This document shows positions 27,088 through 29,541 of a stretch of 32,000 nt of DNA, piece after piece. The notes beneath the pieces are model-generated. The model was given only the letters and a program-made list of their open reading frames with translations, was not told the DNA's origin and ran no database searches. The position numbers were made by a program, and so were the translations under genes. Positions within the stretch are counted from its first letter, which is position 1; each line of letters opens with the position of its first letter. Source of the DNA: Ktedonobacterales bacterium (GTDB lineage Bacteria; Chloroflexota; Ktedonobacteria; Ktedonobacterales; JADMIN01); NCBI GenBank assembly GCA_030167145.1, contig CP126532.1:4350001-4382000 (forward strand), read 5' to 3'.

Positions 27088-27164
<77 letters not shown>

Positions 27165-27971: not shown

Positions 27972-28346
27972 TTGGCTATAGGATGGCTGTCGGGAGTATT
28001 TCGGCGTGGTGGCGCGCAAACGAGCGATGGGCAAACAAGCGCGAAACGGCTGAGCAAGTGGGATGCGCCGCTGGGGAACAACTCTGCCAATGATCGGCTT
28101 GAGCGCAAAGTGGCGAGAATTAGGCGCGGACTCGTGCGGCGTCCGAACAACGCACTATTGTGGAGCGATCTAGGTAATGCGCTGGCGAGACTAAAGCGAT
28201 ATGATGAGGCGCTGGAAGCATTTGATCGCGCGGTTGAGCTATCCCCTTCATCTCCGGTAGCGTGGAACGGATGGGGGTGGGCGCTCTGCGCGCTTGGTCG
28301 AGATCAAGCGCGCCAACTTCGCTCAAGCGCGCGGCCACAATATTAA
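27972..28346 (+). pseudogene. TPR-repeat ORF, probably a 5'- and 3'-eroded fragment
   Basis: One clear TPR (ALLWSDLGNALARLKRYDEALEAFDRAVELSP) plus half of a second (PVAWNGWGWALCALGR), which then degenerates to DQARQLRSSARPQY-stop. There is no in-frame ATG. TTG 27972 sits only 1 nt after the gggagg element. The stop overlaps the stop of the convergent vWA ORF. Confidence 0.35.
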
Positions 28347-29230
28347 TCGCCGGAATCGTTCATTGAGCCAGAGCGATCGATCAGAAAGGCGTAGTCGATC
28401 GGAGTCTGCGAGATCTGGCGGATCCGAGTGACTTCCTGCCACGTCATGCTACCGACATTCACTTGTGTGCCAACCACTCGTGTTGATACCTCCAAGGCTA
28501 TCTTCAGAAAGACCAGTTCCAAGAGCGGAAATGCTTCAATGGTAATTGTGGGGATACCACCATAGTTGCCAACCGTGTTCAGGGCGTTGACATCAATATT
28601 GTCGCCCTCGCCTACACCAATGAGGAACATGAAATTGGAAGCCTCCTGGTTGTAGCGTGTTGCGATACGGCGACCTATCCCGGTGGGAGTGCCATAGGCA
28701 CCACCATCGAAATAGTTCTTGCCATCGGTAATAACTGTGAGGAGCCATGGACGTTTTCTGTCACCCTGATCCCAAAAGGATTCAATTACGTCAGCGATTG
28801 AATCATATAGGCGTGTTGCCTCATTGGTAACCGATCGCATGACACCTTGGAGTGTTGCATGCAATAGCCTTTCATTTCCTGTGAACGGCTGCTCTACACG
28901 GAAGGTATTGCCAAAGGTCGCGATCATACCACGATCAAAGTTCTCAGTGTGAAGGTGCTGAATAAACAGGCTAGCTGCCGCGCATGCGTATTCGATCTTT
29001 CTCATCAGCGGTCCCCTCTCTTTAAAACTCGAATGAAACAAGGTGCTATTAGACCATGTCTCACCGGTAAATACCGCAGCGAGCTCTTGACATGCCACTA
29101 TCGTGCGCAATGACTGGCTTCTGCAGTGATGCGGCATGATTGCCTTGCAAATCTCGGGCGCACCTTCATGAGCCACTGCAAATCGGTGGATTGGAAGCTG
29201 TAGCGCATCTTGCGCATGAAAGTCCATCAA
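28343..29230 (-). CDS. vWA-fold protein with the MIDAS DxSxS strand at the C-terminus (apparent circular permutation, or a rearranged remnant)
   Basis: From M76 (ATG 29005, gagagggga SD 6 nt upstream): RKIEYACAAASLFIQHL, DRGMIATFGN, FRVEQPFTGN, SVTNEATRLYDSIADVIE, PWLLTVITDGKN, NFMFLIGVGEG. This is vWA helix a1 through strand b6. IDYAFLIDRSGSM follows, 7 residues before the stop. GC was about 45-47% in two hand-counted 60-nt lines. The 5'-most starts (TTG 29230, ATG 29227) lack an SD. Confidence 0.65.
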   Translation of the reverse strand: MMDFHAQDALQLPIHRFAVAHEGAPEICKAIMPHHCRSQSLRTIVACQELAAVFTGETWSNSTLFHSSFKERGPLMRKIEYACAAASLFIQHLHTENFDRGMIATFGNTFRVEQPFTGNERLLHATLQGVMRSVTNEATRLYDSIADVIESFWDQGDRKRPWLLTVITDGKNYFDGGAYGTPTGIGRRIATRYNQEASNFMFLIGVGEGDNIDVNALNTVGNYGGIPTITIEAFPLLELVFLKIALEVSTRVVGTQVNVGSMTWQEVTRIRQISQTPIDYAFLIDRSGSMNDSGD

Positions 29231-29541
29231 GAGTACAGATACGCGCTAGGAGGTACGCACTAAGTTCATCTCATTGCTTGAGACGTTACTGTTGTGGTAA
29301 TAGTGTTTGAATTAGTAGGTCACATCCTTTACGGCTTTGTCAAATAGGATCGGAATCGATATATCAAGTGGATTAGGTGATGATCAACACTCAACACGAG
29401 TGATCTAAGAGTGGTACCATAGGGAGTACATTCTCTGGTGCGGGAGCATGCAAACCGCAACTCAAACAAAATCAGTGCAGTCATTCTTAACCAAGCGAGA
29501 AGCGCCGTGCCCCATCGCCCAGCGTTTCCTATCAGCCAGTA

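Follow-up and report, generated by a model that had tools for sequence, protein, structure and literature searches.

Von Willebrand factor A (vWA) domains and their metal-ion-dependent adhesion site (MIDAS) are among the most studied adhesion and assembly modules, with representatives in integrins, complement, Rpn10, TFIIH and the bacterial MoxR systems. The archetypal MIDAS captures an acidic residue of its ligand, and in I-domains and vWF A domains a movement of the C-terminal helix transmits activation. In the canonical domain, strand b1 runs toward the MIDAS face and helix a1 runs back, so that both termini lie together on the opposite face, and the allostery of the domain depends on these points of chain entry and exit. 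Bacterial vWA modules associate with Ser/Thr kinase, FHA and PP2C signalling genes and have the same canonical order. Here we describe a gene with a different order in a window of 32,000 nucleotides from a Ktedonobacterales bacterium (Chloroflexota; contig CP126532.1, positions 4,350,001 to 4,382,000). The gene lies on the minus strand at window positions 28343-29005 and encodes 220 amino acids followed by a TAA stop; the product is 100% identical to the 220-aa protein P0001, recorded at NCBI as hypothetical protein OJF49_004215 of a Ktedonobacterales metagenome-assembled genome. We give a probability of about 0.82 to the full explanation that the gene encodes a soluble single-domain vWA protein with a natural circular permutation (cpvWA). 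The structural identity as a permuted vWA is, taken by itself, very probable. An earlier note on this DNA had named the protein a candidate circularly permuted vWA with its MIDAS strand at the C-terminus, and the family's termini, swapped blocks of homology, re-permuted sequences and the predicted fold all uphold that proposal.

The enclosing open reading frame (ORF), 28343-29230 on the minus strand, is present as the earlier note described it, with a TTG start at 29230 and a length of 295 aa. Within it, the Pfam profile VWA_2 (PF13519) matches ORF residues 76-170 at profile positions 18-106/107 (E=5e-7, 30.6 bits, cut-off 27). As the match begins only at profile position 18, it describes a vWA domain without its first 17 positions, which hold strand b1 and the DxSxS motif. 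When the C-terminal 24 residues were moved in front of M76, the VWA_2 score rose from 30.6 to 40.8 bits and the match became contiguous over positions 2-106/107. The same rearrangement of the window protein raised PF00092 from 19.5 to 28.0 bits (cut-off 23.8), a match that is significant only in this form, and the proposed comparison of permuted and unpermuted queries thus came out in favour of the permutation with both profiles. The pattern is general, as Pfam vWA matches begin at profile position 16-27 in every family member tested.

A profile built from the family gave the same picture from the opposite direction. Searched against the I-domains of integrins aX and aM, it aligned as two blocks in swapped order, profile positions 200-218 matching chain residues 6-24 (b1 and DGSGS) and positions 29-106 matching residues 50-131, and the C-terminal segment of the family also aligned to b1 and MIDAS loop 1 in the CoxE profile. 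In a whole-library search, canonical relatives matched the family profile with E values of ~1e-11 to 1e-13, in two swapped blocks each time. Five of these, P0224, P0238, P0245, P0247 and P0248, are ordinary full-length vWA domains by Pfam (P0247 being a vWA-FHA protein), and show profile positions 198-219 followed directly by positions 4-201. One of them, P0238, reads VIDRSGSMEEAGKITGAQAAARAF, in which the C-terminus of the family (IDRSGSMxExG) is joined to its N-terminus ((M)KKIEYAVGAAGLF). The joined sequence places the cut of the permutation between the MIDAS loop and helix a1.

The rearranged order is the property of a family with sharply defined ends. In a collection of 5.8 billion proteins, we found 104 homologues with E values down to 1e-142, and these covered only 74-75% of the 295-aa query, corresponding to ORF residues 76-295. 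Nearly all are 215-235 aa long and most begin exactly at the Met equivalent to M76. Two alignments, of 25 and of 101 members, show sequences that open with MKKIEYAVGAAGLF... (helix a1) and close with ...P-x-DYAFLIDRSGSM-x-E-x-G-stop; in nearly every case the chain ends 4-6 residues beyond the MIDAS motif. The closest relatives thus have the same a1...b6-linker-b1 order and both termini, the outcome for which the earlier note had suggested looking among homologues. When 1.84 billion cluster representatives were searched with the family profile, 53 clusters matched at E<1e-30 and 149 at E<1e-10. The full-length module was found in 163 proteins of the pooled set, 146 of which end at most 9 residues past the end of the profile, and it is the last domain also in proteins of 580-1175 aa. 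The top match of the representative search, the metagenomic protein P0105 (2693 aa, E=5e-113), was rejected as a member, its score being the sum of 12 weak per-repeat matches. P0105 consists of twelve near-identical tandem canonical vWA repeats with Thr/Pro-rich linkers between them, and provides an example of how tandem arrays can mimic a permuted match. For about a quarter of the 104 homologues no Pfam hit is recorded, and those few that carry a name are mostly called "hypothetical protein"; for the window protein, Pfam gives only the partial vWA match and NCBIfam only a sub-threshold match to a generic vWA model. The family is conserved and apparently undescribed.

We next give residue numbers counted from M76 (=1), unless they are stated to be ORF residues, and conservation counts among 169 aligned family members. 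The vWA core, with elements a1 to a6 in canonical order, spans residues 1-178 (28472-29005, minus strand, as are all parts of the protein), as delimited by Pfam, the structural model, Foldseek and conservation. It contains two of the five MIDAS ligands, Thr64 (28814-28816; Thr in 161 of 169 members and Ser in 6) and Asp94 (28724-28726; 165 of 169), the latter within an invariant TDG. A connector, residues 179-203 (28397-28471), with one helix at 189-198, leads from the end of a6, the old C-terminus, to the relocated strand. The remaining three ligands lie in strand b1 and MIDAS loop 1, DYAFLID-R-S-G-S-M, residues 204-215 (28361-28396), which is the best-conserved segment of the family: D210 and S212 are each found in 167 of 169 members, and S214 in 160 with Thr in another 6. 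All five ligand positions predicted by the earlier note are therefore in the ORF and nearly invariant. The protein ends with the tail NDSGD (28346-28360), for which the family consensus is x-E-x-G, and the stop codon. Position 217 in this tail is acidic in 116 of the 151 members without a gap; we considered it as a special pseudo-ligand and dropped the idea, as canonical relatives are also acidic there. The protein has the curated profile match, the six-strand fold and the complete MIDAS of a vWA domain, and differs from one in the order of its elements. Binding of a divalent cation at this MIDAS is predicted.

We modelled the 220-aa protein as a single chain with AlphaFold2, using an alignment of 101 sequences. 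The model has a mean predicted local distance difference test (pLDDT) of 89.1 and a predicted template modelling score (pTM) of 0.90, and DSSP assigns to it six strands, 25-31 (b2), 35-42 (b3), 87-93 (b4), 125-131 (b5), 153-156 (b6) and 204-210 (DYAFLID), and seven helices, 3-18 (a1), 45-56, 66-80 (a3), 107-117, 139-149, 159-178 (a6) and 189-198. Each of the elements that had been named from the sequence, in canonical order from M76 with a1 first, agrees with this assignment. The C-terminal segment docks as a strand of the sheet (204-210, block pLDDT ~96), as had been asked of a structure prediction, and a DSSP beta-bridge between residues 2 and 218 brings the termini into contact; both features were seen again in a second AlphaFold2 run on the 295-aa ORF. 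The connector has the lowest confidence of the model (pLDDT 66-78). The sheet-strand assignment, the high pLDDT, the bridge between the termini and the superposition of the rest on canonical vWA domains together suggest that strand 204-210 occupies the central slot between b2 and b4.

That superposition comes from a Foldseek search of 350,542 PDB chains, in which the top 50 matches were all vWA domains and all of canonical order, among them BatB (3ibs, E=2e-6), Rpn10, TFIIH p44, vWF A1/A3, the anthrax receptor and complement factor B. The TM-score of 0.55-0.60, over ~170 aligned columns at ~3.3 A, is of the size to be expected from an order-dependent aligner if all but the relocated strand and the connector superpose. 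No solved structure with the permuted connectivity was present among the Foldseek PDB matches, and none scored higher than the canonical ones. Canonical relatives match the family profile up to position 201, and the connector probably derives, by this sequence match, from their C-terminal helix.

In the mechanism that we propose, the chain would run through a1, b2-b3-a2-a3-b4-a4-b5-a5-b6-a6 and a connector of ~25 residues before ending in b1 with the DxSxS loop. This last strand would insert in cis between b2 and b4 and complete the site formed by D210, S212, S214, T64 and D94; the MIDAS would then hold a divalent cation, which in turn would capture an acidic or phosphorylated group on a partner protein. 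Cutting the chain between the DxSxS loop and a1 would put the new termini on the MIDAS face, with the old termini tied together by residues 179-203. This geometry offers a rationale both for the stop 4-6 residues after the motif and for the attachment of fused domains directly to a1, beside the ligand site. As to its origin, the family may have arisen by tandem duplication of a canonical bacterial vWA_2-type domain and subsequent loss of the first b1 and of everything beyond the second b1. Tandem canonical vWA proteins such as P0223 and P0105 hold the permuted frame internally (repeated [195-219][26-177] blocks), which fits such a route of duplication and truncation.

The fused relatives give the clearest indications of a role. 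A Hanks-type Ser/Thr kinase and tetratricopeptide repeats (TPR) precede the module in P0106, P0107 and an 812-aa ORF of Anaerolineae CFX8 (locus L012), TPR alone in P0084, P0085 and P0108, a Gly-rich ALK_LTK_GRD domain in P0154 and P0161, and seven TRAF-type zinc fingers in P0184. In these proteins the module stands last, directly behind the TPR, kinase-TPR, TRAF-zinc-finger or Gly-rich domains; in other fusions it is followed by TLDc (Rhizophagus), GNAT or ZZ-like zinc-binding regions. At 5 of the 14 distinct loci (L001, L008, L012, L015 and L020) a kinase gene is found no more than 5 kb away, as a raw count; a sixth candidate, L003, proved to encode a PBP-like protein instead. At L012 (2249-7826) and L015 (1-4220), from two Chloroflexota classes, the (kinase-)TPR-cpvWA gene is followed by a gene whose product, ~700-780 aa in length, combines a long coiled coil and a kinase domain with a conserved N-terminal domain; the two products are orthologous, with 33% identity over their full length (E=3e-134). 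A TIR-domain gene stands immediately upstream of the fused gene at L012, and at L015 a second, stand-alone cpvWA paralogue lies between the fused gene and the coiled-coil kinase gene. The fusions and kinase neighbours suggest a metal-dependent adaptor, and by analogy with these relatives we tentatively propose, at somewhat less than even odds, that the protein serves kinase/TPR signalling assemblies as an adaptor that binds proteins through its MIDAS, with a link to Hanks-type Ser/Thr kinases in Chloroflexota.

The window protein itself matched nothing beyond generic vWA models in Pfam, NCBIfam and PADLOC, and its locus has no kinase nearby. Inspected by eye only, it shows no hydrophobic N-terminal segment, which suggests that it is cytoplasmic. 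Neither MoxR-class AAA+ ATPase nor Bat operon genes were found in the window or at the 13 other distinct loci, the only AAA+ neighbour being a ClpB-like gene 2 kb away in L005/L006. In a divergent subfamily with a short extra tail (…GDISRAQIV), genes lie 3' of cpvWA in L005/L006 (6789-7337, plus strand) and L007 (6765-7241, plus strand); in two related genomes the cpvWA gene is followed on the same strand by a gene for 170-174 aa without a Pfam match, a possible partner, and in L007 a bPH_2-like gene of 158 aa follows.

Several points weigh against the explanation as a whole. The sequence order, the conservation, the swapped-block homology and the predicted fold are what the analysis shows, and metal binding, docking in cis, the partner and the role go beyond these. 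The slot between b2 and b4 is deduced and not read from model coordinates, and AlphaFold2 run on a monomer cannot separate insertion in cis from strand exchange between subunits. Covariation by mean-field direct coupling analysis was shallow (effective number of sequences, Meff, 56) and gave weak, non-significant hints (V91-I209 at rank 27 and E62-R211 at rank 25) that we did not use as evidence. For the stand-alone genes, the window copy included, no conserved neighbours were found across the 14 distinct loci, so that a signalling role is extrapolated from fused or kinase-adjacent relatives. Finally, Chloroflexota are rich in kinases, and the proximity of kinase genes at 5 of 14 loci is uncalibrated against that genomic background.

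The alternative that best survives is strand exchange in trans, whereby b1 of one subunit fills the slot of another to give domain-swapped dimers or head-to-tail polymers. The length of the connector (~25 residues), its position as the least confident part of the model and the modelling of one chain leave room for this, and engineered circular permutants of other folds have been reported to domain-swap, at least as such work is cited within PMC9278004. We nevertheless consider it unlikely: the monomer model is confident, the strand and the contact between the termini were consistent in two runs, and the canonical relatives already carry the connector helix. In integrin I-domains the N- and C-termini are adjacent, and with the old vWA termini so placed, closure in cis would be unstrained. 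A related and equally speculative idea, which we rate a long shot, is that the relocated b1, carrying three of the five MIDAS ligands and a free tail, acts as a reversible switch by withdrawal or by donation to a neighbouring subunit. If true, movement of the strand would turn the binding of metal and ligand on and off, or make signalling scaffolds polymerise head to tail in a metal-dependent manner, by a strand-exchange mechanism that is not known from vWA domains and would be common to bacteria and eukaryotes.

The remaining alternatives concern what is translated and whether the C-terminal motif belongs to the fold. The frame is open for 75 codons upstream of M76 (29006-29230, minus strand), and translation of the full 295-aa ORF, from TTG 29230 or a nearby ATG, would add an N-terminal domain containing His and Cys. 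This is very improbable: no homologue aligns to ORF residues 1-75, which have no Pfam match either, and the AlphaFold2 model of the full ORF gives pLDDT <50 for ORF residues 1-71. A Shine-Dalgarno-like sequence, GAGAGGGGA (29012-29020, minus strand), is seen 6 nt before the ATG at 29005-29003, as the earlier note had pointed out, and fits a start at M76. Of the upstream DNA, only the stretch GAGAGG-N-ATG recurs at the locus of the closest homologue, whose protein is 75% identical, and conservation ends beyond the Shine-Dalgarno sequence; two independent gene calls agree on 220 aa. The 220-aa protein from M76 described earlier is thus retained and the 295-aa product is not; the 75 codons, whose translation had been left open, fall outside the protein and are most likely an untranslated 5' region.

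It is similarly improbable that the protein is a degenerate vWA domain truly without b1, in which the C-terminal DxSxS-like peptide serves otherwise, for example as a short linear motif, outside the fold. Some vWA-like domains have lost MIDAS residues, and nothing specific speaks for such a loss here. Conservation in the family is highest over the last 12 residues, whose pattern of hydrophobic positions is that of a buried strand; in alignments, this segment falls on b1 and the first MIDAS loop in integrin I-domains, canonical bacterial vWA domains and the CoxE profile, and the model places it in the sheet with high confidence. The competing explanation of the earlier note takes the gene for what is left of a tandem-vWA gene after decay, namely its central part from domain 1 minus b1 to b1 of domain 2, and it is scarcely credible despite the permuted frames inside P0223 and P0105, as more than 100 homologues from different genomes have exactly these termini and lengths (the closest 100 being of 215-235 aa and not two-domain proteins), a six-frame profile search of the window found no other vWA coding sequence up- or downstream, the Shine-Dalgarno sequence and ATG stand precisely at the family's N-terminus, and the module ends the protein even in the long fusions. 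The gene in the window is intact, in answer to the suggestion that it might show decay, and the one remnant of the family that was seen is in an unrelated genome: at L020 (3088-3313) a frameshifted copy, covering approximately residues 131-219 over two frames, lies beside an IS-type integrase/transposase-like ORF and looks like a copy destroyed by insertion.

A pattern scan of 185,579 prokaryotic species, each represented by a single genome, detected 11 loci, and every one of them belongs to Chloroflexota (Chloroflexia, Ktedonobacterales, Anaerolineae and Roseiflexaceae). Eukaryotic members come from Glomeromycota (Rhizophagus, Diversispora), the chytrid Rhizophlyctis, the charophyte Klebsormidium and EukProt protists; they are on long contigs and fused to eukaryote-type domains, which makes contamination unlikely. 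The proteins P0130, P0124/P0254, P0101, P0134, P0184 and P0161 are such eukaryotic members, fused to TLDc, ZZ-like, TRAF-zinc-finger or ALK/LTK Gly-rich regions.

The window copy was probably acquired horizontally and recently, judging from its composition. The gene has a GC content of 0.50 and a GC content at third codon positions (GC3) of 0.54, and GC3 is 0.80-0.86 in the flanking DUF1501, DUF1800, TldD-like and membrane-protein genes; such foreign codon usage points to a recent arrival. Together with the 535-nt spacer upstream, in which no regulatory RNA of Rfam was found, the gene forms a stretch (28343-29540) of GC 0.47-0.50 in a genome of 0.64. The low-GC insert sits between a gene for a 139-aa membrane protein with tRNA-Pro(GGG) (27088-27164, minus strand) on one side and the DUF1501/DUF1800 pair on the other. 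The tRNA-Pro is 1.2 kb away, but we rejected a tRNA-linked island, as no att-like direct repeats were found at the ends of the insert. A phage, plasmid or defence origin was rejected as well: PADLOC reported 0 families, PHROGs gave only a match at E=0.0085, and tblastn found no match in the phage and plasmid collections.

Two further features adjoin the 3' end of the gene. A GC-rich inverted repeat with 14-nt arms (86% complementary) and a 17-nt loop lies at 28288-28332, 11 nt past the vWA stop, and is a possible transcript-end hairpin; it has no T-run and was missed by the terminator scan. On the plus strand, an ORF at 27972-28346 encodes 124 aa with a TPR_2 match (E=1.6e-11) and is convergent with the vWA gene, overlapping it by 4 nt at its stop codon. 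This TPR ORF has a GC3 of 0.54, as atypical as the vWA gene, and is not called as a gene in another assembly of the contig. Its similarity to the TPR part of the TPR-cpvWA fusions is not significant, and it may be a fragment brought in with the foreign DNA.

The cpvWA family is an apparently new topological variant of a well-known domain, common to bacteria and eukaryotes. The earlier note knew of no described permuted vWA family, and a full-text search that covered 8 million preprints and open-access papers, but neither subscription literature nor structure-classification databases, gave us no description of a permuted vWA domain, nor did we find any curated family model; the nearest literature concerns permuted GTPases next to normal vWA domains, or knots in VWA5A. 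Because current domain models cover only ~80% of the cpvWA domain, without its key motif, these proteins are under-called by annotation pipelines. The family would provide a natural test of how chain connectivity affects MIDAS function and folding, a protein-engineering architecture that sets fusion partners next to the metal site, and a marker of an unexplored signalling module in filamentous Chloroflexota and in early-diverging fungi, algae and protists.

Among known systems, canonical bacterial vWA_2 domains of the BatA-BatB type (PF13519; BatB, PDB 3ibs) have the same fold and the same MIDAS motif, whereas in cpvWA b1 and DxSxS come last and not first, and both the N-terminal transmembrane segment and the Bat operon are missing. 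The nearest relatives by sequence are the canonical-order proteins P0238, P0224, P0245, P0248 and P0247, and in P0238 the sequence DRSGSMEEAGKI..AAARAF spans the cpvWA cut point with almost the same local sequence. Integrin alpha I-domains and vWF A1/A3 have in common with cpvWA the six-stranded a/b sandwich and the DxSxS...T...D site. Their termini are opposite the MIDAS, whereas those of cpvWA would lie on the MIDAS face with the old termini covalently joined, and the allosteric route of I-domains would be constrained in this arrangement. As with the bacterial vWA modules linked to kinases, part of the cpvWA family, the window locus not included, is fused or adjacent to Hanks-type kinases, and the canonical relative P0247 is itself a vWA-FHA protein. 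The closest parallel to the permutation is in the circularly permuted GTPases (YlqF/YawG "YRG" and cpRAS; PMC2430557), where the rearrangement of a nucleotide/metal-binding a/b domain is likewise natural and family-wide and the order of conserved motifs rotated; cpRAS even carries an ordinary, unpermuted vWA domain beside its permuted GTPase (PMC2430557). These GTPases belong to a different superfamily and serve as an analogy for the evolutionary event, not as relatives, and both they and cpvWA combine a scattered phyletic distribution with occurrence in multidomain proteins.

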